Assembly: GCA_944381195.1 (NCBI GenBank)
Contig: CALWKH010000002.1
Span: 1 to 36,420, forward strand
Reading direction: 5' to 3'
Length of the DNA stretch: 36,420 nt
DNA from: an uncultured Clostridia bacterium
GTDB lineage: Bacteria; Bacillota; Clostridia; Christensenellales; UBA1242
The notes beneath the pieces are model-generated. The model saw nothing but the letters and a program-made list of their open reading frames with translations, had not been told where the DNA came from and did no database searches. A program made the translations under genes and the position numbers. This document shows, piece by piece, positions 5,723 to 26,242 of this stretch (positions within the stretch are counted from its first letter, which is position 1; each line of letters opens with the position of its first letter).

Positions 5723-5739
5723 TTTTTTACCTCACACAT

Positions 5740-6214: not shown

Positions 6215-6242
6215 CGCCCTCTGTTTTAAATATTTTTATATC

Positions 6243-6368
6243 GTGGGCAGAGTTCATAAAACACCCCCAACCTTTATATAAAAATACCGTGTGGGCAGAG
6301 CCCACAGAAAAAAACTATTTATAACGAATTTATAAAAAATATATGGTGTGGGTAAAACGCACAAAAAA
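6243..6368. repeat. Three short GTGGG-N3/4-CCCAC-type hairpin units following copies A and B
   Basis: GTGGGCagagttca (6243-6257, degenerate). GTGGGC-AGA-GCCCAC followed by an A-run (6291-6314). GTGTGGGTaaaaCGCACAAAAAA (6347-6368). Confidence 0.65.
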
Positions 6369-6929
6369 TGCTTGTTTTTAAAAAATTTTCTGGTTTAAAA
6401 TAAGGCATATATTTTAATATATTTGTTTAAATTTTTTTAATTTTGTAATATGTTTTTTGCTGAAATAATGTGGAAAAGTGGAAAATTTTTGTTTATAATT
6501 TTCAGTGTTTTTTAAATGAAAATAATGATTTAAAAAATAAAATTTATAAATAATTCGTTCAAAATTTCAATGCTTTTTTGCACTGCGACTTATTGTTTTT
6601 TTGTTATGTTTTTTCTTTTTAGCATTTTTGAATTTTGCAATAAAAGTTATAAATTTTTGCATTTTGATGCCAAACTTTTTGTGGGTATGTGCGTTTTTTA
6701 GTGTTTGCGTTCTTTTTTTATTATAAAAAATTGTGTCTTATAAAAACAAAAATTATTGCTGGTTTTGTGGCGTGCTCTTTATATTCCATGTTACATATGT
6801 TTTTGTGTGAAAGTTATATTTTAAGTTGTGAATTTTTTTGGCGTAAACATTTTTTACCTTTTTTGCGTGTGATATTGCTCATTTATTTTATATATTTTTG
6901 AAAAAATATATAAATATGCCTCATTTCCT

Positions 6930-6959
6930 TTGACAAAATGGGGTAAAAATTTATATAAT
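6930..6959 (+). promoter_or_regulatory. Sigma-A-type promoter of the giant CDS
   Basis: TTGACA (6930-6935), 18-nt spacer, TATAAT (6954-6959). AGGAG SD at 6999-7003 and ATG at 7013. The leader is only about 45-50 nt, leaving no room for a riboswitch. Confidence 0.65.
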
Positions 6960-7012
6960 TTTGTTATATTATTGCTTTATTTTCACAAGATAAAAAATAG
7001 GAGTTTATTCAA

Positions 7013-7090
7013 ATGAAAACAAATGTCTTAAAAGCCTTTATGCTTATTATGTTCGTGGGGGTGATGAGTGTCTTTGGACTTTCCGCCTGT
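7013..7090 (+). other. Lipoprotein signal peptide (SPase II) of the giant protein
   Basis: MKTNVLKAFMLIMFVGVMSVFGLSAC has a basic N-region, a hydrophobic core and the lipobox L-S-A-C. The invariant Cys is residue 26 (codon 7088-7090). Confidence 0.75.
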
Positions 7091-10000
7091 GCGGGTCCAC
7101 GAGACGGCATGGCAATTGAAATTTCGTCCGACCAAATAATTGTGGATGAAAACGGAAATCGTCATATCACTCTTACCATTGAGTATGATGAACAAGGAAA
7201 TGTTGTTGCTGACAGCGGTCAAGCAACTCTTTCTGCACGGGTTATAAACGGCGACAGTTCTATTGACAGAACTGTTGAGGCTGTTGAAAGTTCAGAAACA
7301 CAACTTTTTGCCACAACAACTTATGACACAGAGACGCAGACAAACACCGTTACTATTAGGGCGGTGAGTGCCACTGCTGAAAGTGATTCGTCTTTTGTTA
7401 CAATCATGAGCAATGAGGACAACAATGTTTTTGAGCGTGTGTATGTTGAAGTGGTTCAAAAGGCAACCAGCATGGACTATGCTGACAGTCTTGATGTCAC
7501 AACTGATGCAAGTGGTGATGTGATTAACAACCTTGCAGTAATTAAAGATGTTCCTTTTGTCTTTGATACCGACAGTTTGTTTGAGTTTGGGACAGTTGGG
7601 ACAGAGAGTGCGGTTACTCCAAATATCGTTTATCAAATTGATTTAACGGGAGAAATCTATCAAAACGGAGATTCTATCACAATTGGCTCGAATCAAGATG
7701 TGAGTCAAATTACAATCACTGCTTTTGACCAAGATGACACAAGCAATACCGCCTTGCAAAAGACCTTTGTTCTTGATGTTTTAAGCAATGTTAGTGAAGA
7801 TGATGTTGTTATCAACCGAACAGACACCGAAACCTTGCAGGCAGACATTTCAAGTTTGACACTTCTAACTAGCCACACTGTTTCTTATAATAACGCAACC
7901 ATTGAAATTGTGGTTGAACAGAATGATGAATTTGATTACTCCTGTGAGTTTGTTAATTCTTCACAAAAAATTTATCTTGAAGTAAATTCACTTTATCCTG
8001 CGCAAAACAATGTGTTTACTTTGCAGGGGATTATGTCTTTGCCTGATGTGATTGAAGTTAACTTTATTGTTTCTTATGCGGGCATTTTGAACTCGCCAGA
8101 AGTTGTGAAAACTTTGGCAATAAATGTTGTTGACTATCCAACAGAAATTTTGATTAATGACACACCTCAGCAATATAGGCGTCTTACAACACTGCCAGCG
8201 TCGCCAGAAGAATATGTTGGTTATTACATTGCTGTTAATGATGACTATGTTTTGGTAACAGATGACAACTATTCAAGCCTTGGCATTGTTGCGGGATATA
8301 CTGTTTGCTATGCTCTTCAAGACTTTGAACTTGTTGTGTTTGATGCATATGAGGGAGAGGCTAATGGGGAAGAACTTGTTGTTGACCTTGGTAGATTTAC
8401 CATGGGATATGGGGAATACACAATTTCTGTTGATGTTGATAATGCAGACACGCAAACATTGACCTTTGCGCAAAATCTTTTAATCAATGGAGAAGCCATG
8501 CTTGTTGACGACACAACGGGCACCATTGAATATCTTGCTCCAACCTTTACAAGTGGTGACACCCTTGTTATTCGCCTTAAAGAAGGCTTTGTTGGTTCGG
8601 GCAGTTTGTCGCTTATCATAACGCCAACAAGTCAAGCGGACACGGATAATTTGCTTACAAGAAATTTACTTTTGCAATTTACAACTGGAATAACAGATAT
8701 TGTTGTGAGTGAAAATCAACTTTCTGCTGACGGCGAACTTTTGCTTGAAGTAAGTGAGGGGCAAACAGCAAACAGCACCAGAGACATTTCTTTCACCGTT
8801 TTGCCAGATGAGGCTTCAATGGCTGGAGCCTATGGAAGTTATGTTTCTGCATCTTCAAGTGATTCAAGTGTGGTTACGGTGAGTGAAGTTACCACAAATC
8901 AGGGTGTTGGAACCTTTACTGTTACCGCACACTCTGCGGGAGAGGCGGTTATAACACTTACTTCTCAAAACGGAGTTACAGAGGAAATTTATGTTTCAGT
9001 TATTGCAACTCTTAACACCTTTACTTTGAGTGCGGAAGAAGACGGGTCAAGTTCAAACACCACAAGCATAAGTTATAAAGATGACGCGATTGATTCAAGC
9101 AAACAAACAGTGGATACCATTGTGATTGAAGAGGGGAAGGCATTTAACCTTATATATGGAATATATCCATCAAACGCAACAATAACTGATATTTCATATT
9201 TTATTGGCTCTTTGGACGAAAACGGAGCAATTATCAGCACGCAAACGCCAATCAGTGAGTCAGATATCATAAACATTCAAGATTTCCAAAGACAAAATGG
9301 ACATGGAAGCAATGACCCAAACAACCATGGGACAGGTGTTGAATATGTTGTTGCGGTGATAAGTTTTGATGGACTCAGTGATGACGGAACACAAATTGTA
9401 ACCAAACAAATAACACAAACATTTGCTGTTGATGTTTATATTCCAATTAAAAGTTTGACAGCGAATGTGACAAGTTTTGAACTTCTTTCTGGTGGTGTGA
9501 GTGGATATTATAACCAGCAACAACAAGAGCAAGAGGTTGAACTGATTGCTTCGCCAGACGGCACAACGGTTACAACAGCAAGTGCGGTTTGGAGCATGTC
9601 GGCGGGTGCATCGTCATATATCACAGTTGAGGCAATTGACGGGTTCAGTGAGGAAGAAAATGGTGTTATCACAGGCTCAAAAGTTTTGATTAGGGCAAGT
9701 AACCAAATTGTTGGTGGAAGTCGTGAAGTTGAGGTTTATGCAACAATTCAAGACAGGGGTAGAGAACTTTCTTGCACCATAACAGTGACTGTTAATCCGC
9801 AAATTCTTGTTAGCACACTTACAATTGGAAACTATGACGAAACAAACGGTTTTTATTTTGAAGAAACACAAGGATTTTCAAGTCTTGACCAAGATGCCGA
9901 AGGAAATGAACTTGACAGGATTGCAACACTTAACAGCACAAGTCAAGAGGACAGTGCTGTTTCACAGGTTGAGTATCTTAACACCAGAATTCAATATTCT

Positions 10001-13000
10001 GGCAGTCAAATTCCAACAAACAGCAATCTTTCGTATTTCCTGTTTGATGCAACTGTTGACCAAGATGGAAATTGGGCTGTTTCAGACGCAAACAGGCAAT
10101 ACACATCGCACAGCACAAGCGTTTGGCTTGGGTATGATTATGCTCAAAGCAAATATTTTGTGACACCACTTGCTTCGGGATATACGATTTTATATATTGT
10201 TCCACAAGACAAACTTTCAAACGAAGAAAGTATTGTTACATATGAAGAACTTCAGGGTATTTCAAATAAACTTGAAGTTCACATCACAGTGGCAGACGGA
10301 TATACAACATATTACAGGCTTTATGATTCTGAGGATATTCTTGATCTTGCTGGCAACAGCAGTGCATGGGACAAGAACTATTATGTTATGAATGACATTG
10401 AAATTCGTGCAACATCAAATTGGACACCAATCGGGAACAGCACGCAGGCATTCACTGGAACAATCACATCATTTTCTGACACTGCAAGCACCATTTACGG
10501 CTTTAACCTCAATCTTGCCGAGGGCGTGCTTGAAGATGATAACACCTATGGAATTTTTGGGGTATTTAATGGAAGGCTTGAAAATGTTAACATTGATATC
10601 ACTAGTTTGAATATCAATTTCCCTGCTGATTTAACAGAATATTACATTGGAAGTCTTGCAGGGCGAGTTTTATCGGGTGCCGTTATTGAAGATGTTACCA
10701 TTCGAACAAGACAAGTGCAACTTGCTTCAAGTGTTCTTGGAATCTTTGCAAACTTCTATGTTGGGACAATTGGACTTAATGAGTCGGGAAATATCAGTAA
10801 TCTTTCAACTGACTTAACGGGTGTTATTGAAAGCACAAACGCAGAAACAATCAATTTGGTGATGGGTGGTGCGATTGGACTTAACAGAGCCACCTTTGCT
10901 GAGATAAGTGGGCTTGCCATTTCTGCGGAAACAAACATCACGGGTGCATATGAAAATAGTTTTTCTTCTTCCTCAGCCTTTGGTGGCGCAATTGGAAGAA
11001 ATGAAAGTGCAATTTCTCTTGTGTCTGCAAACGGAAGCATAATTTTGGGCGAAAGCACTTTGGCAAACGCACTGGGCGGACTTGTTGGTGTGTCGACAGC
11101 GGACATTTCAAATTCGACATCATCAGTCAGTCTTGCAAATGCAATCAATGTTGGAGGAATTGTTGGTGTTGCAACAGCAATCAACCTTTCAAATGTGACC
11201 TATGAAATCTATTCAACAAGCAGAGATATTGCTCTTTCTTCTGCCTTAACTGACCAAACTCAAAACATCTATGTTGGAGGACTTGCTGGACTTATTAACG
11301 GAAGCGCAAGCATTGCATATTCATATGTTATCTCTTTTGACAGCGACAAGGTTATTTCAAGCAGTCAAAATCTTGGTGGCTTGGTTGGAGGAAGTGCTGG
11401 CTCTCTTAACATAAATAATTCATTTTTCAGTGCAAACATTGATGCTCAAACGGCAAGAAATGTTGGTGGACTTGTTGGAACTGCGAGCATTGGCGCAACA
11501 ATTTCAAACACCTTTGTGACTGGAACAATCACAGGTGCAACAACATCAAATGCTGGGCTGTTTGTTGGAACGGTGGGTGCAAATTCTGGAATTACAACTT
11601 CATATAGTGCAATGACCGCAAACATTCAACTTGGTGGAGTGATAAGCGGAAATGTTACATATCGAAACACCATTATTATGCGCTATGGGGCTAATTGGAA
11701 CGAAGTCAGCATTTCTGGAATAACCTATCTTAACAGCACACAGATGTCCACGCAAAGCAACTTCACTGGATTTGACTTCACAAGCACTTGGGCAATTGCA
11801 GATTCTGCAACAAACAGCGGTCACCCAATTTTGTTAAATACTGACGGAAGTTACCTCTATCCAAACATCATAACATCTATTGTTGCAACGGCAAATTCTG
11901 GGCTTGAAAGTTCAAACATATTTAACACTTCTTCAAGCACACAAGTAATCATTGTTCTAAGCGATTTAGCGAACAATCAAATTAGACTTGCAGACATTTT
12001 CAGTTTTCTTGTTTCACCACAGCAAGACATCAGCACAGTGAGAGTGTCAGTATCTGCTGGAACATCAAGCAACGCAATATCAATTTTTGGTGGTTCAATG
12101 CTTGGAAACATCTATATTGAAGTTTTGGGCGTTGGTGTTACAAGTTTGACCATTTCGTCATCAACATCTTCTGCAAGATGTGTGGTTGAAATTGCTGTTG
12201 TTAACGGTTTTGATGATGTATATCTTTATGAAAGCATTGACAAAAAGCAAGAGGCAGATGCTGCAGATGATGAAGATGTGCAAGAAACATTTAACATCAC
12301 GGCGGGTTCAAGTGTTAACATTTTGACTGGCACAACAGAAGAATGGTATGCAGATTTTATTGACGCAAACGGTGACAGTTTGAACGGCAACAATGTTGGT
12401 GGTGGAATGATGTTCCTTTTGGAAGAGGGCTATATTACCATTGGCGATGACGATTTTTCTGAAAGAACATATTCTATTGAGCAAATTTTGAACATTTCAC
12501 TCGCTTTTTCTGGCGATGAACAAACAGTGTTTAGAATTCTCTCTGGTGACAATAACGCAACTGTGACCGAAAGCGCTGGAACATATACCTTTAACGCATT
12601 TGACTCATTCTGGGGTGAAATCGACGCAAACGGCGACTTTACCGCTGGAACGGTCACTGGCGAAAGAACGGTTACAAGAAGTCAAATTATAAGTGCTATG
12701 ACAAGAACGGTGCTTGGTTCGTCAAGTGGACTTATGGATAACGGACTTAACGAAATGAATGCAACAGAACTTGAGGAGCGTGCAAACAGTCTGCTTGATG
12801 TGTTTGCAAGATTTTTTGCAAATTCAAGCGTCTTCACTCAAACAATTGACGAACAAATGCACATTGTATTCTGTGTTGACAACAAGCCATATTTCACAGT
12901 TTCTCAAAGAGAAGGAACAAGCACTAGATTTGTGGTTGTGACAAAGGTGTTTATGAGTGTGGAAAACGACAGTTACATCTCGGTAAGTGGAACAAACAGA

Positions 13001-16000
13001 CATGAACAACTTGAAGTTACTTTGATTCCATATTATGTTGGTGTTTTCAGTGAAGTAAACTATTCATTATTATTTAACAAGAGTTTGACATTCTTTGTTG
13101 TGTGCTATGACGGAATTGAAAATGTTACAACAAATGTTGGTGGAACAGAGGAGAATCCAACCGAGATTGAACTTTCTCAAAACCTTTCATTTACCGTTAC
13201 CATGCAAAGCGACTCGCCATATGACGAGCAGGCAGGTTCACTTATCACAATAACCGACATCGACACGGGCGAAATTGTGGCGCAGAAAAACATTCTTGAT
13301 GACCTTTCAAGTGAGCTTATGGTTATGAACGGCTATGTGTTTGATGTTGACAATCTCACAGCAAGTGACGGAGTTATAACCGAGCAAGTGCTTTTTGGAA
13401 TTGATGACAACTTTAAACAACAATATAAGACTGCAAAGACCTTTGAAATCACTGTGGTGAACAAAATGTTTGTTGAAAACGGCAAGCAGATTGAAAGAAC
13501 TTTCTATGTGAAAATTAACACACAAAGCGTTCAATCAATTGATATTTTGCACTATGCCGATGCAGAACTTGAAGGCGAAAGTCAAACCACACCTGGAAAC
13601 TATTTAACAAACGCTGGTGCAGAGCCAACAAACACCATTATGGCGGGAGAATATGGACTTTTGAGAATTAATGTTTTCCCAAATTATGCAGACTTTGACC
13701 AAATTACAATAACATCTAATGTTGTTGAAAATGATGTGGTATCTTTTGTTCAACGAGTTGCCGAAACAATCAGTGTTAATGGTGCAAACCAAACAAGATA
13801 TTATTACTATGAAGACGGTGTTACATACATTGAAAATGGAATCATTGTGGCACCAGTCTCAAACAGAGATTTAACCTTTGATGGAAACATCTATCTTCAG
13901 ACCTTGATTGCAAAACAAACGACATCAGCCGCAGGTTTTATCATCACAGTTACCATTTCAAAAGATGGTATGCCAGATATTGTTCAAGAATTTAATCTGG
14001 CAGTTGACGCAACGGCAAATCTTATTATCTCTTATGATGCAACATTAAACCCAGAAAGCATTGAACCAGAGGCCTATATTGCTGTTGGAACAGGTGGAAG
14101 TGGCGAGACATATGCTTCAAACAGAAATGAGTTCACAATTACGCAAGTTGGAGTGTTTGATGTTGCTCCAAGTGTGAGCATCATTGATGATGAGACAGGT
14201 GGTAATGTTCAAATTGAAAATGTTGACGGAAGATATTATATTGTTGTTGGTAATGCAGACATTGTTGGGAGACATTTTACCGTTTCTGTTTCTGCGGTGA
14301 AATATGTCAATGGCTATCGAAGAACAATTTCTCGTGCAATGAACTTCACAATTGTTGACTATGTTCTTAAAGACGGCTCTATTGTTATTGATGAGGCACC
14401 AAACAATTCATTCAGTGAGCCTTTTGCTGACAACGCAAACTATAAGCTTACAATCAGAATCGACACCACAAAGATAAACGCAAACACTGCAATTTCTGGT
14501 GTTCAAACAAGAATCAATGCATTGCAAGAAGACTTTAATGACGGAACAATTAACCCTTGGTCTTTGCTTGATTCAAGTGGCAACTTGATTTCAATTGAGC
14601 AGGGTGGCACTTTGGGTGCAAGTTATTACTATGCAGTGACAAACGAACTTTCTGACCCTGTTTATGCTGCTGGAACAGCACCAACGGGGGAACAATTAAG
14701 CGAATATACCGTTATAAACAATGCATTCTATTTGCGCCTTGTTGTTGGCTCGGTTAACCTTGATGACAACGGTTGGTATATCTGTCCAGTTAGACAAAGC
14801 AGTGGCAACAGCATTGTTTTGAATGCTTTTAGTTTCCTATATACTGACAGTGGACTTTTGACAAATGAATTGCCAAGTGATGCGTCAACCTATTTCACAG
14901 TGCCATATCAAAACATTTCAATATCATTTATTCAACTTTCATCAACAGAAGAACCAATTCCAATTAACACCCTTAATGAACTTCTTTCAATGGAAGAGGG
15001 GGAACACTGTCGTTTGATGCAAGACATTGATGCGTCAGGAATATTGTGGACTCCTCTTAATGTTGCAATTTCAAGCCTTGACGGAAACGGACATACCATA
15101 ACAATTGGTCGTTTTGCAACTCTCACTGGAACAGAAACTTTACCAGCAAACTATGGACTTTTTGGAACGGTGAGTGAAAACACTTTGCTTAAAAACATAA
15201 CAGTTAAATATTCTGTTACTACTGAAGACGACGGATTAGACCAAACGGAAAGCACACATCTTAACTTTGGTGGAATTGCGGGAATCAATAACGGAATCAT
15301 TGTTAACTGTGAGGTTAACAGCATAAACAATCTTAACGCTGTAATCACAATCTCATCTCTGCCACTTGAAACAAATGTGTTTAATGTTGGTGGACTTGTT
15401 GGTAAAAACAACGGAGACATCTCTAACAGCCGTGTGGAGAAAATCAGCCTGACTGCTCGTGGAACGGTTGCTGGTTTTGCTGCGGTGAACAATGGTGCCA
15501 TTGCATCAAGTTATGCTGACAATTCAATCATCACAAACACCTCAACAACAAACACTGTTGGAGCAACTGCTGGCTTTGTTGGATATAACAATGCAAATGC
15601 TAGCATTACAACAAGTTATGCTGGCGGAACATATGCAACTCTTTCCACAAATGAAGACGGTGTGAGCAGCTTGAATGTTGATACAAGTGTTGGACTTAAC
15701 GGAAGAACGCAACAAATTGTTGCATCGGTTAACACTGGTGGTTTCCTATATTCAAACGCAGGAAGTGTTACGGACTGCTTTGCTGGTGTTGCACTTTCGG
15801 TTGAAGCGCAAGGTTCATCTTCGGGTGGATTTATGTATGAAAACCTTACTGGTGGAACGGTGACAAGAAGTTATTCTGTTTCATCTTCACCACAAAACAA
15901 CTATGCGCACACACCTTTTGTTGCTCCAAATTCAACTTACAGCGCTCTTAATACTGCTGAAGATGACGCTTTTGAAGATTGTTTCTATTATAACTCTGGA

Positions 16001-19000: not shown

Positions 19001-22000
19001 CTTTCACAGGTAACAGACCAGCGTATTCCAATTGATTATCAAGGTGGAAGTGGCCAATTCATTATTGCTGGATCCACATATACCATTGACTCACAAAATA
19101 ATGTTAGTGATTCAAGTGGATTTAGAATTGGAAATGCTTCTTCACCACTTAGAATTGGTGAATATATTTGTGTTAAAGAAAGCGGAGAAAACTATATGCT
19201 TGTTTCAGCGGCAAGTTTGCCAGAATCTTCTGCTGGTGGATTTATTGGATATGTTGAAACAAACACAAACAATGTTTTAAGCATAATTGGTTCTTATTTC
19301 CAAGGTAACATAACATCCTATCGTGATTCACAACTTAACCTTGGTGGTTTTGCAGGAAAGACTGCAAATACAACATATAATGAAAACTTTGTTGATGCAA
19401 CAATTAACATAAGTTATATTTCCAACCTTCTTTCTGCGGGTGGTTTTGCTGGAACGCTTATCAATTCAAATGTGAACAATGCAACAGCACATGGTGACTT
19501 TAACATAACGGTTGATTCTAACACAATGGATATCTATATTGGTGGTTTTGTGGGCAGAGCGACTGGAAGAATTACAAATGCTGTGACATATGAAAACATT
19601 AACTTTAATACCACTCAAAATTGGACAGCCACAGCAAGTGGAACAGACACTCAAATGGTTGCAGGCTTTGCGGGAAGTTTTGGAACAAACATGGATTCCA
19701 TTGAACTTATTAACATTGCTTCTCTCAGCACAATCAAAAATAACACACTTATGATTAACACTGACGGATTTAGTTTTGAAACACCAACCATAAGTGATGT
19801 AAACGGAACTTTTGCAACAAATGTTTATTTTGATGAATATCTTGCGTTGGCGGGAGACATCAACAATTTCAGCAGACAAAGTTGGGACTTCATTTTGGGC
19901 AATGGTGAGGTTGTCTATAACTATGTTGATGCATCAGATGCTTTCTCTGTTTTGAGCATTGGCAATAACAAATATCCGCGCGTTAACACAAACACAGGGC
20001 TTGTTACTGCACGCTATCAAGAAAAGTTTGATTCAATCTTTACAAACGCTCTTTCTGGAAGCAAGATTAACCCAATTCAAGTTTCTTCGGTAGATGACTT
20101 TAATTCTATGACAGGAGTTGTTGGAAACTGGTATATTCAATCAAACAACCTAAGTAATATTCCATTACATCAAACAAAAACGATGTTGGGCTTCTATAAC
20201 GGTGCAGGCTATACAATCACAGCGCAAAGATATGATTATATCTATGGAAGTGAGCAAAGCCTTATTGACATGGGTGTGTTTACCACAGTTGGTGATAAGG
20301 GTGTTATAAGTGGCGTAAATGTTGACTCAGTTATCTATCTTGGACTTCTTGCAACCGATGAGGGCAGAACAAATATTGGCTTTATTGCATCTGTTGTCAA
20401 TGAGGGCGGAATTGTGTTTGGAAGTGCATCTACAGGTCAAATCACCATTGTGTCAAGTCAGCAGACATCAAACATTATTGGTGGTTTGGTTGCGGTTAAT
20501 GACGGTCAAGTGTTCTCTTGTGCATCTAGCGTTGATATAACAGTTAACACAACAGGAACTGGGGAATATTTTGCTGTTGGAGGAATGGCTGGATATACCG
20601 AGGGTGGACACTCATATTATTCATATAGAGATTCATATTACAGTGGTTCAATCATTAACAACATCACATCAAGCAGTCAAGCGCTTGTTGGTGGAATAAC
20701 GGGAATGGTGGTTGGAGCAACAAGCACCACAGTTCAGGGTGCAAGTCTTTCAACATTTTTCATGCGCAACACCTATTCAGCAGCAAGTATCACGGGTAAC
20801 GGTGGAATGCTTGTTGGAGACATCATGGCAACACAAGAGTTTGTTGTGAATGTTTATTATGTTGACAAGATTAAAAACCCAGTTCAAGCAAAAACAATTG
20901 CAAATTTTGGAATTGGTTTCAATATAACAAATCAAAGAAATAACACACAAAACATCACAAGTGGCTTTGAATACAGCACAGGCTCATATTCAACGCCGAT
21001 GACCGAGGGGCTTTGGTCAAACACTGTTAACTTTAACTTTGGTTTGCCACATTTAAGAACAGAAACAAACTTGGTTGACACAGGAATTGGAACACCAGAA
21101 AAACCATATCTTCTTAACAGTGAAGGACAACTTGCTTGGGCTCTTAACAATGGTGGAACTGCAAATGTTAACTATTATTCTTTGACAAGAAATCTTGACT
21201 ATGGAATTTTGACAAACATTGACAGTTTGATTACCTCGGTTACCTTTAATGGCTATTTGCTTGGAAATGGATATTACATTTCAAACAGCACTGGCGTTTT
21301 GGTTGGTGCAAACAGAGGAGCAATCACTCAGGTTGGTTTTGACGGAACAATCACAGCAAGTGTTTTGGTAACAAACAATAACAGTGGAGTTGTTTCGGAA
21401 ATCTATACCACAAGAAGTGGAGACTCTGGCATTATTGCTTCTGGCACGGGAAGTGTTGTTGACTGTTTGACATATAACTATGCAATAGATAAAAATGGTG
21501 TTGCACGCACAAAAACTTCGGTGCAATATGCAACAACGCTTAATGATGAAAACTTTGACTATATTTCAACTTGGGTATTACAACCAACATCATCAAGTGC
21601 AACGGCAGCACTGACAACAGGTATGCAAAATCTTCGTGTGTTTGTTAACAGTTTGGAAAATGTTGACATCACAGGCATAACAGGAACTGCTGATGACACA
21701 CTTACACAAAACGCAGAAGGCTTTAATGAATATACATTACACATAACAACCAAAGAACAATATGCCGCAATTTTGCAATATATTATTAGAAGCGGTATGA
21801 ACGGCGAAAGTTATATCATAAATCTTGAAGCAGATTTGGATATAACAGGTCTTAAAATGGGTGATCTTGGAGACGGAAAAGACATTACTATTAGCATAAA
21901 TGGAAATAACCACACAATCTATAATGTGATTCTTGATAACAACGCATCAAGTTCATATGCTGGAATCATTGGTGAGTGGTATAGTGGAACAATTAGCGAT

Positions 22001-25000
22001 ATCAAGTTTAACCAAATGAATTTGATGACCACAACGACAGGTGGAATTGTTGCAGGAAGAAATAATGGTGGAGTAATCAGCAACATCACAATTACAAACA
22101 GCATTGTTGGTTCGGCAGTAGAATCAGCAGTTGTTGGAGGAATTGCTGGTTACAACAGTGGAACAATTGAAAAGGTTTCCATGAGTGATATAACTCTTAT
22201 TGCAAACGGTGGAACGGTTGGTGGTGTTGCAGGAAACAGCAGTGGAATCATTACAATCAGTTCGCTTGACTTAGAGGTTCTTCAAGGCACAACTCCACTC
22301 ACAGCAGTGGGTGCAGTTGCTGGAATTACTGAGGGAACAAGTAATAGCATTACTGTTGCTGGAAATGTTAATTTCTTTATTGACAGCCCAGTTAACATTG
22401 GTGGTGGAATTGTTGGAAAAGCATCAAGCGGTGGTGAAATCACAATCAATCAAGGTGCGACTGTAACCTTTGCAAACGCTGGTGGAACAAGTATTGGTGG
22501 AATTGTTGGAAATATCAGCGGAAGCGAAGCAATCAACGTTTACATTCTTGGTCAAAGCACGCTTACAACAACTTCATCAACAAACGTTGGTTCAATCATT
22601 GGTTTGATTGACGGTCAAGCCGAAACAACAATCTATATTGAACAAGGAAACCTTGCGCTAAGTGTTAGCGACAGCGAAAATGTTGGTGGTGTTGTTGGGT
22701 TCAGCCAGACAAGCAGTTTGACAATTCGAACACAAGATTCAACAGACTTCACAGCAGATATCACAATCACCTCTCTTGGTGGCAATGAAAATGTTGGTGG
22801 TGTGATTGGACGAAACACAAACACAGTAACAGGCTTTACAAATACTGGTAGCATTAATATCTCTGTTACAGACACCGATGTTTCAACAGGAGGTTTTGTT
22901 GGACATAACAGCGGAACCATTGAGGTAAATGTTTCTAATGTTACAATTACTGGCAATGCTTCATATGTTGGAGGAATCACCGGCTTTAACACCAGTAACG
23001 CAACAATCAGAGAAACAACATCTAACAACATTAATATTACGGCAGTAGACTATGTTGGAGGAATTGCTGGATATAATGATGCAGAAATTTATCAAGTAAC
23101 AGTTTCAAACCTCACAATTTCTGCAAACAGTTATGTTGGAGGAATTGCTGGTCTTAATGACGGAGATATTGGAAGAGATGGAGAGGACTATCGTATTCAA
23201 CTTAACAACATGAGCCTTTCGGCTTTAAACAGAGTTGGAGCAATCACTTCAATCAATAACAACACAGTTATGAATGTTATGATTTCCGACCAAAGTGGAG
23301 CAATCACTGTTACCTATCAAGGCGGACTTGATAGTGAAGAAAGTGGTGCGGGCTTTATGATGTCGGTTAACAATGGCTATATAAGCGGAATAACAGCAAC
23401 CTTTACGAGCACTGGAACAAGACTTGTTCTAGACAGTGCAATCACACACAACATTGGTGTTATAACGGGAGTTAACGCAAACAGCATAACTGCTTCAAGT
23501 GTTACAGGATTTACCTTGGCACTTAACAGCAATGTAACAGACTCGGGTCTTATTGGACTTAACTTCTCGAATTCACTTGTTGGCGGGGTTACTTCATCAA
23601 ACTTTGTTATAACTGGTGGAAGTGAAAATCTGGGACTTTTGGTTGGACTTAACCAAGGAACAGTCAGTGATTCATTTGTGAACAACTCACAAAACACCAC
23701 ATGGAACTTATCGGGTGTTACAGGTGCGGGTGCGGTTGGAAAGAATGAAAGTGTGATTTCTGGTCTAACAATCTCGAACAACCTTGTTATAACTGGAAAC
23801 GGGCAAAGTGTTGGTGCAGTTGCCGGAATTAACGAAGGCACAATCGGTGGCATTAACGCCGTTAGCAGTGTTTCAATTTCTGGAGATAGTGACATTGGTG
23901 GCTTTGTTGGACACAGCAGTGGCACAATTACTATTGCAAGCAACGCATCAGCAACAGTTACAAGCGTTACTGTGAGCGGTAACACGAATATTGGTGGCTT
24001 CTTTGGGTATAACGAAGGCAGTTTCAGAGGTAATGGTGAAGATAACGTTTCACAAAGCAATGTTTCTGGTGCAAGTAATGTTGGTGGCTTTGTTGGATAT
24101 AATGCAAGCAATTCTTCTATCACAAACGAAGGTATAACTGATGCAAATGTTTCAGGTGGAACGGTATCGGCATCTGCCGTTGGAGATGTTAGACTTGGAG
24201 GTCTTGTTGGATACAATACTTCAATCATCACAACTTCAACCGTTTATGGAACAAATGTCACAAGTTTGGTTGGTGAAGATTATGCAAGCATAACAGGTGG
24301 CTTTGCTGGTGAAAACGCAAGTGGAGCAAGCATCACAAGTCCAACTGTTACCTTCTCAAGCACAAGCAACATTATTGCAGGCGACTATGTTGGTGGAATT
24401 GCTGGACGCAATGGTGGTAGCATCTCAAGTGCAACCGTTTCAATTGACTCTGGAATTGTTACAACCAGCAAGACAATTGAAAGTGCAGGCGACTATGTTG
24501 GTGGAATTGCAGGAATCAACACGGGAACAATAAGTGGAACAACCACAGTTGCAACGGGCAATGTCTTTGATGCCTATGGTATCATGGGTGGAATTGCTGG
24601 TGAAAACTCTGGAACAATCACGGGAACGGTTCGAACAGGTGCAAACCTTGATATGCATATTGTTAGCGGAACAGGTAGTTCTGGAGACCGTAGACACTAT
24701 ATCTTTGGTGGAGTTGTTGGGCGCAACACTGGAAGCATTAGCGCAAGCATAACAATCAGTTCAACAAACATCAACGGTGGAATTATTCTTGGTGGAGTTG
24801 TTGGACTTAATGACGGAGGCAGTCTGCCATCAAGTGCATCTGGTGTTACCTTTGCTAACGATTTAACAATTACATTCTATGGTGCAATTCTTACAACTTC
24901 TGGAGATAATCAATATCTTGTGTTTAACAGCAGTCGTCCATGGTTCAGCGCGCTTTCTTCGATCACAAGCGGACAACTTTATGCTGTTTCATATGGAAAG

Positions 25001-25129
25001 ATAATTGGTTGTCAGGTTTCTGGAAGCACGGGCGCAGCATATTCAACAGCAAGCAGAGTTACCTTTGCGCTTCAAGGTAACACAACAAACATTGTTGACC
25101 CTGCTGCAATTGGTAACTATGGACCATAA
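7013..25129 (+). CDS. Giant (6,038 aa) lipoprotein-anchored surface protein: Ig-like domains plus seven GLUG-type parallel beta-helix cassettes
   Basis: Single uninterrupted 18,117-nt ORF with a promoter, SD and lipobox signal peptide. It carries Big_2-like signatures such as GTFTVTAHSAGEAVITLTSQNGV. Dozens of VGG[LI][AV]G-x-N-x-G-x-I turns match the GLUG motif. Cassette openers (W/Y-TPIG...F-x-G-x-F-x-G-N-G-x-x-I) and cassette caps (FDF..W....P.L) recur. Confidence 0.9.
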   Translation: MKTNVLKAFMLIMFVGVMSVFGLSACAGPRDGMAIEISSDQIIVDENGNRHITLTIEYDEQGNVVADSGQATLSARVINGDSSIDRTVEAVESSETQLFATTTYDTETQTNTVTIRAVSATAESDSSFVTIMSNEDNNVFERVYVEVVQKATSMDYADSLDVTTDASGDVINNLAVIKDVPFVFDTDSLFEFGTVGTESAVTPNIVYQIDLTGEIYQNGDSITIGSNQDVSQITITAFDQDDTSNTALQKTFVLDVLSNVSEDDVVINRTDTETLQADISSLTLLTSHTVSYNNATIEIVVEQNDEFDYSCEFVNSSQKIYLEVNSLYPAQNNVFTLQGIMSLPDVIEVNFIVSYAGILNSPEVVKTLAINVVDYPTEILINDTPQQYRRLTTLPASPEEYVGYYIAVNDDYVLVTDDNYSSLGIVAGYTVCYALQDFELVVFDAYEGEANGEELVVDLGRFTMGYGEYTISVDVDNADTQTLTFAQNLLINGEAMLVDDTTGTIEYLAPTFTSGDTLVIRLKEGFVGSGSLSLIITPTSQADTDNLLTRNLLLQFTTGITDIVVSENQLSADGELLLEVSEGQTANSTRDISFTVLPDEASMAGAYGSYVSASSSDSSVVTVSEVTTNQGVGTFTVTAHSAGEAVITLTSQNGVTEEIYVSVIATLNTFTLSAEEDGSSSNTTSISYKDDAIDSSKQTVDTIVIEEGKAFNLIYGIYPSNATITDISYFIGSLDENGAIISTQTPISESDIINIQDFQRQNGHGSNDPNNHGTGVEYVVAVISFDGLSDDGTQIVTKQITQTFAVDVYIPIKSLTANVTSFELLSGGVSGYYNQQQQEQEVELIASPDGTTVTTASAVWSMSAGASSYITVEAIDGFSEEENGVITGSKVLIRASNQIVGGSREVEVYATIQDRGRELSCTITVTVNPQILVSTLTIGNYDETNGFYFEETQGFSSLDQDAEGNELDRIATLNSTSQEDSAVSQVEYLNTRIQYSGSQIPTNSNLSYFLFDATVDQDGNWAVSDANRQYTSHSTSVWLGYDYAQSKYFVTPLASGYTILYIVPQDKLSNEESIVTYEELQGISNKLEVHITVADGYTTYYRLYDSEDILDLAGNSSAWDKNYYVMNDIEIRATSNWTPIGNSTQAFTGTITSFSDTASTIYGFNLNLAEGVLEDDNTYGIFGVFNGRLENVNIDITSLNINFPADLTEYYIGSLAGRVLSGAVIEDVTIRTRQVQLASSVLGIFANFYVGTIGLNESGNISNLSTDLTGVIESTNAETINLVMGGAIGLNRATFAEISGLAISAETNITGAYENSFSSSSAFGGAIGRNESAISLVSANGSIILGESTLANALGGLVGVSTADISNSTSSVSLANAINVGGIVGVATAINLSNVTYEIYSTSRDIALSSALTDQTQNIYVGGLAGLINGSASIAYSYVISFDSDKVISSSQNLGGLVGGSAGSLNINNSFFSANIDAQTARNVGGLVGTASIGATISNTFVTGTITGATTSNAGLFVGTVGANSGITTSYSAMTANIQLGGVISGNVTYRNTIIMRYGANWNEVSISGITYLNSTQMSTQSNFTGFDFTSTWAIADSATNSGHPILLNTDGSYLYPNIITSIVATANSGLESSNIFNTSSSTQVIIVLSDLANNQIRLADIFSFLVSPQQDISTVRVSVSAGTSSNAISIFGGSMLGNIYIEVLGVGVTSLTISSSTSSARCVVEIAVVNGFDDVYLYESIDKKQEADAADDEDVQETFNITAGSSVNILTGTTEEWYADFIDANGDSLNGNNVGGGMMFLLEEGYITIGDDDFSERTYSIEQILNISLAFSGDEQTVFRILSGDNNATVTESAGTYTFNAFDSFWGEIDANGDFTAGTVTGERTVTRSQIISAMTRTVLGSSSGLMDNGLNEMNATELEERANSLLDVFARFFANSSVFTQTIDEQMHIVFCVDNKPYFTVSQREGTSTRFVVVTKVFMSVENDSYISVSGTNRHEQLEVTLIPYYVGVFSEVNYSLLFNKSLTFFVVCYDGIENVTTNVGGTEENPTEIELSQNLSFTVTMQSDSPYDEQAGSLITITDIDTGEIVAQKNILDDLSSELMVMNGYVFDVDNLTASDGVITEQVLFGIDDNFKQQYKTAKTFEITVVNKMFVENGKQIERTFYVKINTQSVQSIDILHYADAELEGESQTTPGNYLTNAGAEPTNTIMAGEYGLLRINVFPNYADFDQITITSNVVENDVVSFVQRVAETISVNGANQTRYYYYEDGVTYIENGIIVAPVSNRDLTFDGNIYLQTLIAKQTTSAAGFIITVTISKDGMPDIVQEFNLAVDATANLIISYDATLNPESIEPEAYIAVGTGGSGETYASNRNEFTITQVGVFDVAPSVSIIDDETGGNVQIENVDGRYYIVVGNADIVGRHFTVSVSAVKYVNGYRRTISRAMNFTIVDYVLKDGSIVIDEAPNNSFSEPFADNANYKLTIRIDTTKINANTAISGVQTRINALQEDFNDGTINPWSLLDSSGNLISIEQGGTLGASYYYAVTNELSDPVYAAGTAPTGEQLSEYTVINNAFYLRLVVGSVNLDDNGWYICPVRQSSGNSIVLNAFSFLYTDSGLLTNELPSDASTYFTVPYQNISISFIQLSSTEEPIPINTLNELLSMEEGEHCRLMQDIDASGILWTPLNVAISSLDGNGHTITIGRFATLTGTETLPANYGLFGTVSENTLLKNITVKYSVTTEDDGLDQTESTHLNFGGIAGINNGIIVNCEVNSINNLNAVITISSLPLETNVFNVGGLVGKNNGDISNSRVEKISLTARGTVAGFAAVNNGAIASSYADNSIITNTSTTNTVGATAGFVGYNNANASITTSYAGGTYATLSTNEDGVSSLNVDTSVGLNGRTQQIVASVNTGGFLYSNAGSVTDCFAGVALSVEAQGSSSGGFMYENLTGGTVTRSYSVSSSPQNNYAHTPFVAPNSTYSALNTAEDDAFEDCFYYNSGYGQNGISLTEALGIERRTIEQFVNDNNDSIGVWDAYSISRYSSGDRTSGEEFTSVWTFLNSNNVYFNYNNFKASTQAQGTTSRLLGPRLVSADMIAVESWDLVGYDFDQKAYVYTRGDVSINGTNHAVTDHLTIVNNDIIVSPHIITSAEDLYDAMTADADTQNDNGIIDDWYRLAADIDLTELVALGYDMTTINTATFAGNFEGNGFEISGIDISVRTGESAGLFATIDSLNSSTNNYASVQNLSLVVQELAASSVSKVGALAGTINNAVLGNISVSPDSNTVTIVGYNFVGGVAGKIMGTSRASNLTSSISVTAVFGNSATNSLVYNEDLMRFYGLEEEGYNNDENILSYAGGIFGVVDLTPIIEDNFIISTDEYEESRLANLTVTGESKISGTTVGGVIGLLGTSSHVTNIKKLAENGSELKGSRYVGGIIGENHGYINFAQLLYTEEVQDRINSSQYVGSIDTEADFDLFVGTSKAIGGLIGINFGFTSDMQSGVVDNSQNRVAVKNSNAQIAGGLIGISVGGEITACFATASVRSATTGITGGAFGVIGGVENFSSDVQDPFEAISNKTAYEGMQYSSRFTIVSDIVALNNWSYSDYNILLNIQENGYLGGFVGVIYSERISEAHTSMTNEEYEELVAEGVGISASKEDNFYVSTIYNSQPQKTSNTSDGAVISAIGGRSSSTDLSDVATGLTRYEMWTYSYENNSGNEDVNTQVDRMFENWPVYDYGVLMDEESETFKIINYDSYGVPFYNPQQNPNRIEIWTVEDFLDMEDLLDANYVLMADLDFTGVDYTPIGTSSRPFTGTFTGTHYDEATNTNITHVLYNITMTTDLTYNTPAVGIFGYTSGATIQDVVINNINFSWVPSVFNSTAAAGFLIGIAEDTEVLNVQIVEDHSRVDATITDNSFSMNGVTYTISGNSISGSDGSRATITENSFTLNNKHYRLDTARNEISQVWTGENVLRSSANAVGGLIGNYSLKRQSSANLQNSFIEADIELSQVTDQRIPIDYQGGSGQFIIAGSTYTIDSQNNVSDSSGFRIGNASSPLRIGEYICVKESGENYMLVSAASLPESSAGGFIGYVETNTNNVLSIIGSYFQGNITSYRDSQLNLGGFAGKTANTTYNENFVDATINISYISNLLSAGGFAGTLINSNVNNATAHGDFNITVDSNTMDIYIGGFVGRATGRITNAVTYENINFNTTQNWTATASGTDTQMVAGFAGSFGTNMDSIELINIASLSTIKNNTLMINTDGFSFETPTISDVNGTFATNVYFDEYLALAGDINNFSRQSWDFILGNGEVVYNYVDASDAFSVLSIGNNKYPRVNTNTGLVTARYQEKFDSIFTNALSGSKINPIQVSSVDDFNSMTGVVGNWYIQSNNLSNIPLHQTKTMLGFYNGAGYTITAQRYDYIYGSEQSLIDMGVFTTVGDKGVISGVNVDSVIYLGLLATDEGRTNIGFIASVVNEGGIVFGSASTGQITIVSSQQTSNIIGGLVAVNDGQVFSCASSVDITVNTTGTGEYFAVGGMAGYTEGGHSYYSYRDSYYSGSIINNITSSSQALVGGITGMVVGATSTTVQGASLSTFFMRNTYSAASITGNGGMLVGDIMATQEFVVNVYYVDKIKNPVQAKTIANFGIGFNITNQRNNTQNITSGFEYSTGSYSTPMTEGLWSNTVNFNFGLPHLRTETNLVDTGIGTPEKPYLLNSEGQLAWALNNGGTANVNYYSLTRNLDYGILTNIDSLITSVTFNGYLLGNGYYISNSTGVLVGANRGAITQVGFDGTITASVLVTNNNSGVVSEIYTTRSGDSGIIASGTGSVVDCLTYNYAIDKNGVARTKTSVQYATTLNDENFDYISTWVLQPTSSSATAALTTGMQNLRVFVNSLENVDITGITGTADDTLTQNAEGFNEYTLHITTKEQYAAILQYIIRSGMNGESYIINLEADLDITGLKMGDLGDGKDITISINGNNHTIYNVILDNNASSSYAGIIGEWYSGTISDIKFNQMNLMTTTTGGIVAGRNNGGVISNITITNSIVGSAVESAVVGGIAGYNSGTIEKVSMSDITLIANGGTVGGVAGNSSGIITISSLDLEVLQGTTPLTAVGAVAGITEGTSNSITVAGNVNFFIDSPVNIGGGIVGKASSGGEITINQGATVTFANAGGTSIGGIVGNISGSEAINVYILGQSTLTTTSSTNVGSIIGLIDGQAETTIYIEQGNLALSVSDSENVGGVVGFSQTSSLTIRTQDSTDFTADITITSLGGNENVGGVIGRNTNTVTGFTNTGSINISVTDTDVSTGGFVGHNSGTIEVNVSNVTITGNASYVGGITGFNTSNATIRETTSNNINITAVDYVGGIAGYNDAEIYQVTVSNLTISANSYVGGIAGLNDGDIGRDGEDYRIQLNNMSLSALNRVGAITSINNNTVMNVMISDQSGAITVTYQGGLDSEESGAGFMMSVNNGYISGITATFTSTGTRLVLDSAITHNIGVITGVNANSITASSVTGFTLALNSNVTDSGLIGLNFSNSLVGGVTSSNFVITGGSENLGLLVGLNQGTVSDSFVNNSQNTTWNLSGVTGAGAVGKNESVISGLTISNNLVITGNGQSVGAVAGINEGTIGGINAVSSVSISGDSDIGGFVGHSSGTITIASNASATVTSVTVSGNTNIGGFFGYNEGSFRGNGEDNVSQSNVSGASNVGGFVGYNASNSSITNEGITDANVSGGTVSASAVGDVRLGGLVGYNTSIITTSTVYGTNVTSLVGEDYASITGGFAGENASGASITSPTVTFSSTSNIIAGDYVGGIAGRNGGSISSATVSIDSGIVTTSKTIESAGDYVGGIAGINTGTISGTTTVATGNVFDAYGIMGGIAGENSGTITGTVRTGANLDMHIVSGTGSSGDRRHYIFGGVVGRNTGSISASITISSTNINGGIILGGVVGLNDGGSLPSSASGVTFANDLTITFYGAILTTSGDNQYLVFNSSRPWFSALSSITSGQLYAVSYGKIIGCQVSGSTGAAYSTASRVTFALQGNTTNIVDPAAIGNYGP
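7091..10300 (+). other. N-terminal stalk of the giant protein: multiple Ig-like (Big_2-like) beta-sandwich modules
   Basis: The region is rich in T/V/S/I alternating strands. The clearest Big_2-like unit is at about 8790-9010 (ISFTVLPDEAS...SSSDSSVVTVSE...GTFTVTAHSAGEAVITLTSQNGVTEEIYVSVI). Similar strand endings occur at about 7350-7410 and 9715-9800. Boundaries are approximate. Confidence 0.55.
10306..11838 (+). other. Beta-helix cassette 1 of the giant protein
   Basis: Opener YYRLYDSEDILDL...NWTPIGNSTQAFTGTI (W1137 at 10421), followed by GLUG-type turns (MGGAIGLN, FGGAIGRN, LGGLVGVS, VGGIVGVA, VGGLAGLI, LGGLVGGS, VGGLVGTA). Cap FDFTSTWAIADSATNSGHPILLN ends at about 11838. Confidence 0.6.
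14948..16270 (+). other. Beta-helix cassette 2 of the giant protein
   Basis: Opener EEPIPINTLNELLSM...ILWTPLNVAISSLDGNGHTITI (W2679 at 15047), turns FGGIAGINNGIIVNC and VGGLVGKNNGDISNS, and a cap region FTSVWTFLN...LGPRLV. Confidence 0.6.
16424..18280 (+). other. Beta-helix cassette 3 of the giant protein
   Basis: Opener SPHIITSAEDLYDAM...ATFAGNFEGNGFEISGI (about 16590-16640), turns VGGVAGKI, YAGGIFGV, VGGVIGLL, YVGGIIGENHGYI, IGGLIGINFG and AGGLIGIS, and a cap-like ENWPVYDYG...GVPFYNP. Confidence 0.55.
18290..19990 (+). other. Beta-helix cassette 4 of the giant protein (contains a 29-aa tandem duplication insert)
   Basis: Opener RIEIWTVEDFLDMEDLLDANYVLMADLDFTGVDYTPIGTSSRPFTGTFTG (PIG at 18395-18403), turns VGGLIGNY, AGGFIGYV, LGGFAGKT, AGGFAGTL and IGGFVGRA, and cap SWDFILG...NKYPRVN. 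Confidence 0.6.
20069..21063 (+). other. Beta-helix cassette 5 of the giant protein
   Basis: Opener NPIQVSSVDDFNSM...GFYNGAGYTITA (G4397 at 20201), turns IIGGLVAVNDGQV, VGGMAGYT and VGGITGMV, and cap LWSNTVNFNFGLPHLRTE. Confidence 0.55.
21083..21590 (+). other. Beta-helix cassette 6 of the giant protein (short)
   Basis: Opener GTPEKPYLLNSEGQLAWAL...FNGYLLGNGYYISN (G4751 at 21263) and cap ENFDYISTWVLQP. Confidence 0.5.
21731..25129 (+). repeat. Beta-helix cassette 7: roughly 1,130-aa near-continuous array of GLUG-type turns to the C-terminus
   Basis: Opener YTLHITTKEQYAAIL...ISINGNNHTIYNV (G4964 at 21902). Several dozen 20-28-aa units of the type VGGIAGYNSGTIEKVSMSDITL follow. There is no LPXTG, SLH or choline-binding anchor, and no TM segment at the end (...IVDPAAIGNYGP). 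Confidence 0.7.
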
Positions 25130-25360: not shown

Positions 25361-26242
25361 ATGAAAAATATGTTGGATAATCTTGGCATTGAAAAATCAA
25401 AAGAGGAAATCATTTTTGCATCAAAGGGATGCGAATATGTCGATTATTTATGCTCAAAAAAGGTACTTGAAAAATTGGAAATATCCTATGCCGAAGAAAA
25501 TGGTATTTCAAGAAAAGAAGTCAAAACCGAGTTTATAAATCATGGCAATGATATGATGGTTTATGTCATCAAAACTCCAAACGATATTCAAACGGTGTTG
25601 ATTGGTCTTCCAACACTTGAATTTGGAAAACTCAAAAAAGAGGCAGACCTTTTATATCACTTTCATCAAATTGATACATCTGTTATTTCGCCAATAAAAT
25701 ATGAAGCTTTAGAGGCAGGACGATTTAAGCGCGAATTGATGCTTACACCATATATCTATCAAGCACGATGCATCTCAAACTTTGAGGGCAAATTTGGACT
25801 TTATATTCCAGAGCCAAAATATAGGTTTGTCCCTACAAACGATAATCAAACATCAATGATAAAAACCTGTATAATTGCAAAATTGATTTCAAGTTTTGAT
25901 TTGCAAAACAATATGGGCATAAGCAAAATTCAAATTACTGGTGGAGATTTTATTTTGCAAAAAGGGTGGGAAAAGCAAAAGCCGACTTTTGAAAACACCA
26001 TGAGCAATTTAAAACTTATTTCAGCCCGAGATAGTATAAATTGTTCTTTGCAGGAATATGTTGATTTAATAAAACAAGAATTTCCTTTGATAACCAAACA
26101 TCCAGATGACTATAAGGCAAACAATCGCTTTCTTTTGAACACTTGCAGTGAAATTCCTTTTACAAATCAAGAAATTGGCAAAGGTATTGAACTTGGCATG
26201 AAAGCAAAAAGGAAACAAGAAAACCGCGAAATAACATTGTGA
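25361..26242 (+). CDS. Hypothetical cytoplasmic protein (293 aa), family not recognised
   Basis: The ORF-track start (TTG 25334) lies inside the promoter, so the first in-frame ATG downstream of the -10 is 25361 (MKNMLDNLGIEK...). There is no SD, signal peptide or TM segment, and I recognise no motif. Confidence 0.65.
   Translation: MKNMLDNLGIEKSKEEIIFASKGCEYVDYLCSKKVLEKLEISYAEENGISRKEVKTEFINHGNDMMVYVIKTPNDIQTVLIGLPTLEFGKLKKEADLLYHFHQIDTSVISPIKYEALEAGRFKRELMLTPYIYQARCISNFEGKFGLYIPEPKYRFVPTNDNQTSMIKTCIIAKLISSFDLQNNMGISKIQITGGDFILQKGWEKQKPTFENTMSNLKLISARDSINCSLQEYVDLIKQEFPLITKHPDDYKANNRFLLNTCSEIPFTNQEIGKGIELGMKAKRKQENREITL

Follow-up and report, generated by a model that had tools for sequence, protein, structure and literature searches.

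A predicted giant surface lipoprotein with seven serial GLUG cassettes, conserved in a small clade of uncultured gut Christensenellales

Lactic acid bacteria possess surface proteins of 3,000-8,000 aa that carry a β-solenoid (PMC12863079), and giant repetitive proteins of 10,000-30,000 aa occur in mammalian-gut Clostridia (West-Roberts et al., bioRxiv 10.1101/2023.11.21.568195). The β-helix of the IgA1 protease, as its solved structure shows, takes no part in catalysis, which is carried out by other domains, and serves in gating and substrate positioning (PMC7695701); the “GLUG motif” itself was found in only two papers, each naming it in passing. Here, we analyzed a 36,420-nt stretch of DNA from an uncultured Clostridia bacterium (contig CALWKH010000002.1 of assembly GCA_944381195.1; hereafter “the window”), in which one open reading frame (ORF) on the plus strand (7013-25129) encodes a protein of 6,038 aa plus a stop codon. 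The ORF contains no internal stop codon and is therefore a single uninterrupted frame, as had been predicted from the sequence alone; its features are given below in plus-strand coordinates of the window. As judged from sequence, the product is a giant cell-surface lipoprotein of an uncultured, spore-forming gut member of the Christensenellales. The explanation that we favor, with moderate confidence, is a lipid-tethered, segmented surface fiber that probably serves in adhesion or surface contact.

The closest structurally characterized relatives are the N-terminal β-helix of the S. pneumoniae IgA1 protease (6XJA/6XJB) and BACOVA_03286 (3N6Z), with which the giant protein shares GLUG (it passes the threshold of Pfam PF07581), the opener Y-x-L-x-x-D-I-D ... 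PIG ... F-x-G-x-F-x-G-N-G-h-x-I ... GLFG and the VGG[LI][AV]G-x-N-x-G rungs. A hidden Markov model (HMM) constructed from 158 cassette N-termini of 106 unrelated GLUG proteins matched the giant protein through its opener (N-terminal) portion at seven sites and no more (aa 1099, 2644, 3138, 3760, 4348, 4686, and 4898), and all of its remaining matches cover the rung part only. These sites fall within a few codons of the boundaries given in the original prediction, whose claim of seven concatenated cassettes is thereby confirmed with an external model. Cassette 1 spans aa 1099-1609 (10307-11839; independent E-value (iE) of the opener, 5e-17); cassette 2, together with its cap and linker, spans aa 2644-3137 (14942-16423; iE 3e-26); and cassettes 3, 4, and 5 span aa 3138-3759 (16424-18289; iE 4e-26), aa 3760-4347 (18290-20053; iE 7e-18), and aa 4348-4685 (20054-21067; iE 2e-17), respectively. 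These are followed by the short cassette 6 (aa 4686-4897; 21068-21703; iE 1e-7) and by cassette 7 (aa 4898-6038; 21704-25126; iE 6e-24), a long regular GLUG solenoid in which eight rung-only matches follow the opener.

The Pfam GLUG profile, which has a gathering threshold of 20.5 bits, detects some of these cassettes and misses others. When the protein was scanned as 720-aa tiles, GLUG scored above the threshold on five tiles with four to eight stretches each, corresponding to cassettes 1 (35.4 bits, six stretches), 3 (26.3 bits), 4 (39.0 bits), and 7 (25.9 and 29.2 bits, seven to eight stretches); cassette 2 remained below the threshold at 15.6 bits, and cassettes 5 and 6 gave no match. A scan of the protein in two halves (~3,100 aa each) returned no GLUG from Pfam and nothing beyond a Big_2 match below the threshold; the missing GLUG signal is an artifact of length or bias, because the 720-aa tiles recovered it. 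No NCBIfam family matched either the halves or the tiles. The terminal cap, originally described as FDF..W, occurs in that literal form in two of the seven cassettes, and looser versions are found in the others, such as FDY..W at aa 4848 of cassette 6. The cassettes are 26-36% identical in pairwise comparisons, and their sequences mark them as old paralogs, not recent duplications. Cassette 4 also contains, between its rungs (aa 3907-4035; 18731-19110), three short hairpin-like repeats of the form F-(S/T/I)-(L/M/I)-x-G-x-x-Y-(T/R)-(I/L), which start at aa 3907, 3936, and 4016 (e.g., NSFSMNGVTYTISGNSI, NSFTLNNKHYRLD, and GQFIIAGSTYTIDSQNNV); similar motifs are present in the orthologs. They may form a protruding hairpin array and thus a candidate binding insertion.

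An AlphaFold2 model of aa 1098-1720, the region of cassette 1, consists of short strands, with predicted local distance difference test (pLDDT) values mostly of 75-95 over the first ~140 aa and roughly 55-90 up to residue ~240. A Foldseek search of the PDB with this model placed the β-helix of an IgA1 protease (6xja) first, with a probability of 0.96. IgA1 proteases from S. pneumoniae and Gemella (6xja, 7uvl, 7uvk) and BACOVA_03286 (3n6z) lead the list, and the next are fucoidan lyase, L. reuteri SRRP, PfbA, tailspikes, and polygalacturonases, all of them right-handed β-helices; phmmer and profile searches against PDB sequences yielded nothing relevant. Because the Foldseek matches include the N-domain of the fucoidan lyase FdlA, phage tailspike depolymerases, polygalacturonases, and alginate lyases, and because dockerins are present in some GLUG-cassette relatives, the cassettes might be regarded as β-helix carbohydrate-active enzymes that make up a cell-bound polysaccharide-degrading machine. 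However, these matches reflect a generic β-helix likeness (E ≥0.06, TM-score ≤0.26) and rank below the non-catalytic helix of the IgA1 protease, no CAZy-type Pfam family appeared on any tile even at E-values up to 10, and no NCBIfam family was found; moreover, in the one solved GLUG-bearing enzyme, the helix is non-catalytic and has a gating role (PMC7695701). We therefore consider an enzymatic role for the cassettes improbable.

The original prediction had also noted that no catalytic motif is present, and this holds: HExxH is absent from the giant protein and its three full-length orthologs, GDSGG is absent from the giant protein, and neither Pfam nor NCBIfam identified a catalytic family. 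This bears on a further alternative, in which the protein would be a relative of the IgA1/Zmp-type metalloproteases or a contact-dependent toxin-delivery protein. GLUG helices are common to the giant protein and the M26 proteases, some cassette relatives contain PF05342 (which we take to be the M26 N-terminal region), and the C-terminus varies between orthologs. Nevertheless, no M26 or other peptidase domain was detected on any tile, no toxin or immunity module was recognizable, and a 293-aa ORF downstream of the giant gene is absent beside the orthologs in three related loci. Compared with proteins of the IgA1-protease type, the giant protein lacks the M26 catalytic region, HExxH, G5, and LPXTG and contains seven cassettes in place of one; the helix of the IgA1 protease acts as the gate of an active site (PMC7695701), of which the giant protein has none. 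Because the catalytic motif is absent, this alternative is largely refuted, and we assign it very little weight.

The anchoring of the protein is suggested by its N-terminus, MKTNVLKAFMLIMFVGVMSVFGLSAC, which comprises a signal peptide with the lipobox L-S-A-C (7013-7090; Cys26 is encoded by 7088-7090). The PROSITE lipoprotein rule PS51257 calls for a Cys at position 15-35, a Lys or Arg within the first seven residues, and a hydrophobic core before the lipobox; the giant protein fits it at Cys26, with charged residues K2 and K7 and the lipobox stretch GVMSVFGLSAC. Upstream of the ORF lie a Shine-Dalgarno sequence, AGGAG (6999-7003), read from the sequence 9 nt 5′ of the ATG, and a predicted sigma-70-type promoter, TTGACA-18 nt-TATAAT (6930-6959), which agrees with the consensus at 12 of 12 positions and, as a consensus match only, is the top-scoring site in a scan of 5600-7200; the promoter, ribosome-binding site, and lipobox first proposed are thus all retained. 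The signal peptide is the sole strongly hydrophobic segment of this Ser/Thr/Gly/Asn-rich protein of about 638 kDa (isoelectric point (pI) ~4.05), in which no second membrane segment was found. A motif scan of the giant protein and its three full-length orthologs detected no LPxT[GA] (LPXTG) motif, Pfam searches of the 720-aa tiles detected no SLH or CW_binding match, and no hydrophobic segment is present at the C-terminus, in accordance with the earlier view that LPXTG, SLH, choline-binding, and C-terminal transmembrane anchors are all missing. In this respect, the protein differs from Gram-positive giant extracellular proteins that have β-solenoid heads. The Apilactobacillus kunkeei proteins Giant1-5 are likewise located at the surface, evolve rapidly, measure 3,000-8,000 aa, and possess a β-solenoid presumed to be the binding element (PMC12863079), and L. 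reuteri SRRP (PDB 5NXK) is among the fold matches of the cassette model. However, Giant1-5 and SRRP have a single solenoid, which sits at the N-terminus on a helical or Ser-rich stalk, and bear a wall anchor or SH3b at the C-terminus, whereas the giant protein has the reverse polarity, with a predicted N-terminal lipid and distal solenoids, and possesses seven solenoids and β-sandwich spacers.

The window derives from short-read metagenome assemblies, in which repetitive genes are prone to collapse, and an assembly artifact or a decaying pseudogene that merely reads open was considered. The same contig, 99.95% identical, occurs in a European Nucleotide Archive metagenome assembly (L001), and two loci from other samples (L002 and L003) contain the 3′ 6.2 and 2.2 kb of the gene in frame and at the same length, differing from the window ORF by 62 and 14 nucleotides over those stretches. 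Two contigs of 42.7 and 59.9 kb encode full-length strain variants of 6,039 aa (P0003 and P0011), each with one additional residue in frame and 76-77 substitutions relative to the window protein. The length thus agrees to within one codon in at least three independent full-length assemblies, and collinear full-length relatives of 5,699-6,225 aa exist in related species. The only DNA repeats inside the ORF are GLUG-core motifs of 34-49 nt that are 60-80% identical; no meaningful tandem repeats were found, and Tandem Repeats Finder reported no coding tandem repeat able to slip. Collapse is consequently of no concern, because these repeats are too short and too dissimilar to mislead an assembler. 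The ratio of nonsynonymous to synonymous substitution rates (dN/dS) of the giant gene is 0.46 against L002 and 0.33 against L003, compared with 0.09 and 0.03 for polA in the same comparisons, which indicates purifying selection that is relaxed relative to polA. The independent copies, the orthologs, the lack of long repeats, and a dN/dS below 1 effectively exclude misassembly and pseudogenization, which we regard as having a negligible chance of being correct; the ORF is genuine and under constraint.

With the region between cassettes 1 and 2 as the query (aa 1611-2645), an exhaustive HMMER search of 1.84 billion representative proteins produced eight matches: the giant protein itself, three full-length relatives, one protein of 1,497 aa, and three of 181-505 aa. 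The full-length orthologs (6,152, 6,225, and 5,699 aa) contain this middle region at the same position with 38-42% identity. All four full-length proteins are collinear, with a mean identity of 39% over their whole length, and each retains the lipobox and all seven openers; LGFSAC-x-x-PRDG is conserved in the three orthologs (P0004-P0006). These sequences establish an architecture that is conserved among orthologs. Conservation is highest at aa 2200-3900 (50-61%, with aa 2201-2300 as the top 100-aa stretch at 61%) and lowest in the C-terminal solenoid (23-34% identity, 20-33% gaps beyond aa 5600). In three loci (L009, L011, and L012), as in the window, the giant gene lies upstream of DUF1256-cvpA-spo0A-polA. 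The 6,225-aa ortholog (P0005) shares its C-terminus with the giant ORF of L009 (Christensenella sp. UBA7584), and L011 and L012, from roe deer and reindeer metagenome-assembled genomes (MAGs), contain more distant giant GLUG ORFs of at least 2,688 and at least 2,772 aa that reach the end of the locus. These loci, which represent the closest relatives, are the only 3 with the giant gene among 59 species loci that have at least 5 kb upstream of spo0A. The closest Spo0A proteins among the GTDB species representatives belong to uncultured Christensenella MAGs (94% and 77% identity), consistent with a taxonomy of Christensenellales, and more distant matches come from Clostridia MAGs of ruminant, mouse, and human guts. 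On this evidence, the gene belongs only to a small clade of uncultured Christensenellales from the gut. A separate contig (L023; CAVEBU010000006.1), binned as “Alistipes finegoldii,” encodes a Clostridia-type Spo0A that is 61% identical to that of the window and has probably been mis-binned in that MAG.

Outside the cassettes, the protein contains two long β-rich regions. The first (aa 27-1098; 7091-10306) is presumed to be a stalk of unique modules. It showed no relative in a contig scan of GTDB species representatives. The N-terminal 1,100 aa also had no match, and a cassette 1 query only two weak matches, in a protein search whose 120 listed matches were all ≤1,211 aa and never included the 6,038-aa protein of the window itself, so that these results are uninformative on giant relatives. 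The second region (aa 1610-2643; 11840-14941) separates cassettes 1 and 2 and bears out the original prediction of about 1,000 aa of non-GLUG, β-rich sequence at this place. It gave no Pfam, NCBIfam, or PDB sequence match, and an AlphaFold2 model of aa 2130-2660 contains three tandem β-sandwich domains at aa ~2140-2460 (13430-14392), where pLDDT values are mostly 70-94. The Foldseek matches of this model are nectin-1 D1-D3 (E 7e-6), protocadherins, and the Ig domains of PAD enzymes (E ~1e-5), and the conserved middle region is thus modeled as three tandem Ig/cadherin-like β-sandwiches. Profile-profile comparison with hhalign revealed no internal repeats, the non-GLUG modules all differing from one another. 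This arrangement can be compared with that of fibrillar adhesins, which consist of a stalk, an adhesive domain, and an anchor: in the giant protein, tandem β-sandwiches are modeled at aa ~2140-2460, the N-terminal 1,070 aa give a Big_2 match below the threshold, and the modules are unique and not repeated.

A feasible model may be that the signal peptide is exported by Sec, that Cys26 is modified with diacylglycerol, and that signal peptidase II cleaves the precursor, so that the N-terminus would tether the chain to the outer leaflet of the cytoplasmic membrane. Unique β-rich modules totaling about 1,070 aa would then form a stalk through the wall, and seven right-handed parallel GLUG β-helix cassettes, each capped at its N-terminus, would make up a rigid segmented fiber whose cassette series is broken after cassette 1 by a further ~1,000 aa of β-sandwich domains. 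Such a fiber would be about 150 nm long, a rough estimate that allows each rung ~28 aa and 0.48 nm over ~3,800 aa and adds ~21 sandwich domains of ~4 nm each. The distal C-terminal solenoid would be the part that is most exposed and evolves fastest. The fiber has no enzymatic domain and would most likely mediate adhesion or contact at the surface, with glycans, host material, or other microbes as partners. The identities of the modules are given directly by the searches described above. Export and lipidation are suggested by the conserved lipobox and the extended geometry by the module types, and an interaction role is supported by the extracellular partners of homologous cassettes, the adhesin fold matches, and the fast-evolving distal end.

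Several observations weigh against this model. The beta-helix fold originally proposed for the cassettes agrees with the kinds of structure matched, 6xja being the first, but those matches are statistically weak (best E 0.02, TM-score ≤0.33); the cassette 1 and middle-region models have moderate mean pLDDT values of 58.5 and 64, respectively. The Ig-like modules ascribed to the N-terminal region rest, among Pfam families, on a lone Big_2 signal at aa 609-655 (8837-8977), which reaches 21.6 bits against a cut-off of 22.8 and hence lends that claim weak support. Neither lgt nor lsp, the genes on which the predicted lipidation would depend, lies inside the window. In addition, the most conserved part of the protein (aa 2200-3900) is internal and could have a specific role beyond a picture of a stalk with a sticky tip, and no adhesive domain was recognizable in the Pfam and NCBIfam tiles. 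We infer the fiber and its adhesive function from the lines of evidence above. The last two observations would suit a non-adhesive structural coat or spacer, that is, an S-layer- or glycocalyx-like layer or a shed scaffold of the biofilm matrix, as would the very acidic, Ser/Thr/Gly/Asn-rich composition and the conserved chromosomal position among housekeeping genes. However, known S-layers are not built from singly lipid-anchored molecules without SLH or another self-assembly domain, the variability of the distal end and the elevated dN/dS accord with diversifying pressure on an interaction surface, and the adhesins SRRP and PfbA are among the related β-helix fold matches. A coat function is therefore possible but rather unlikely, and a lipid-tethered, probably adhesive fiber is the explanation that we prefer.

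The degree to which this protein is exceptional was overstated in the original prediction, which regarded its size, stacked cassettes, and mode of anchoring as unusual. A search with the cassette profile found at least 514 proteins (those listed being ≤1,211 aa), in which the cassette is partnered with SLH, dockerin, Flg_new, a type IX secretion system (T9SS) tail, Big_2/Big_3, fn3, CHAP, or PF05342, and the cassette is, by its sequence distribution, a widespread extracellular building block. Tandem cassettes occur in 43 of the 106 unrelated proteins (≤1,211 aa) that contain openers, 34 having two and 9 having three; a lipobox is present in 11 of the 120 GLUG-cassette proteins listed; and giant surface proteins had already been described. 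These modular GLUG-cassette surface proteins of gut and environmental bacteria contain a homologous cassette (E down to 1e-105) in an extracellular context; they commonly have one to three cassettes in tandem and, in some cases, a lipobox as in the giant protein. On the other hand, those listed (≤~1,200 aa, a ceiling set by the search) are mostly anchored by SLH, dockerin, a T9SS tail, or Flg_new, unlike the giant protein, and none has the ~1,000-aa middle region, which is confined to the clade of the giant protein. The giant proteins of West-Roberts et al. share with it a gut-metagenome habitat, an origin in Clostridia, a long extracellular repetitive build, and a presumed binding role; they are built from RCC1, Listeria-Bacteroides repeats, YG repeats, dockerins, and LRR, and GLUG cassettes and lipid anchoring, the former present and the latter predicted in the giant protein, are unmentioned in that report (bioRxiv 10.1101/2023.11.21.568195). 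The giant protein stands out by combining seven cassettes with a predicted N-terminal lipid as its sole anchor and ~2,100 aa of clade-specific modules of β-sandwich type, and this combination is conserved as one unit in a small uncultured lineage.

The genes flanking the giant gene encode a class II aminoacyl-tRNA synthetase, DUF1256 (YyaC-like), CvpA, Spo0A, and PolA, and SecE, NusG, and ribosomal proteins L11 and L1 are encoded further downstream in L001; the gene content identifies the locus as core chromosome of a spore-former. No Rfam match and no tRNA was found in the window. The 293-aa ORF mentioned above (25361-26242; no Pfam match) begins 230 nt downstream of the giant gene without an intervening terminator-like site, the first such site being at 26441-26470. 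It is present in L001-L003 and absent at this position in L009, L011, and L012, which rules it out as a conserved partner gene; from these sequences, it is probably not a functional partner of the giant protein. Upstream, a divergent minus-strand gene (4619-5722) encodes a 367-aa product that has no Pfam match and comprises a hydrophobic, multi-helix-like N-terminal portion of ~130 aa and a long Lys/Thr/Asn/Glu-rich tail. The 1.29-kb spacer between this gene and the giant ORF (5723-7012) is AT-rich (~29% GC) and contains no convincing coding ORF and, in the whole-window scan, no Rfam match; it includes a direct repeat of 41 nt (6006-6046 and 6145-6185; 78% identity) and, on the minus strand, a terminator-like hairpin (6306-6290). 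An invertible promoter or phase-variation repeats in this spacer were considered and rejected, as it contains only AT-rich repeats of low identity and no convincing inverted repeats around the promoter. The giant gene (37-42% GC) is richer in GC than the genes and spacers around it (29-35%); given its synteny in related species, its Gly/Ala/Ser/Thr-rich composition is a more likely reason for this difference than recent transfer. Downstream of polA, the region 33780-36420 is strain-variable: alignments break between ~33.8 and ~34.2 kb, identity is 96-97% versus ~99% elsewhere, and in L004-L006 two genes (625 and 585 aa, no Pfam match) replace the single 594-aa minus-strand ORF near the end of the window.

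Thus, the giant protein is best seen as an extreme example of a familiar kind, the giant modular Gram-positive surface proteins with β-helix cassettes, and not as a new class or mechanism. It is tempting to speculate that the ~6,000-aa lipoprotein family constitutes the principal surface appendage of these bacteria, a lipid-rooted, ~150-nm segmented β-helix fiber that uses its conserved internal core (aa 2200-3900) and variable tip in specific cell-cell attachment, with syntrophic partners or host mucus as possible targets. We hold this stronger proposal to be doubtful; if true, it would define a distinct class of Gram-positive fiber adhesins with an N-terminal lipid anchor and serial solenoids. 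The Christensenellales are heritable, health-associated gut bacteria; to our knowledge, most have yet to be cultured, and next to nothing is known of their surface biology. A conserved ~640-kDa surface protein to which a small genome devotes 18 kb probably has a major part in determining how the cells make contact with their surroundings. It is therefore a sensible target for metaproteomics, imaging, and binding studies, and it offers structural work a clean, assembly-validated example of serial GLUG β-helices.

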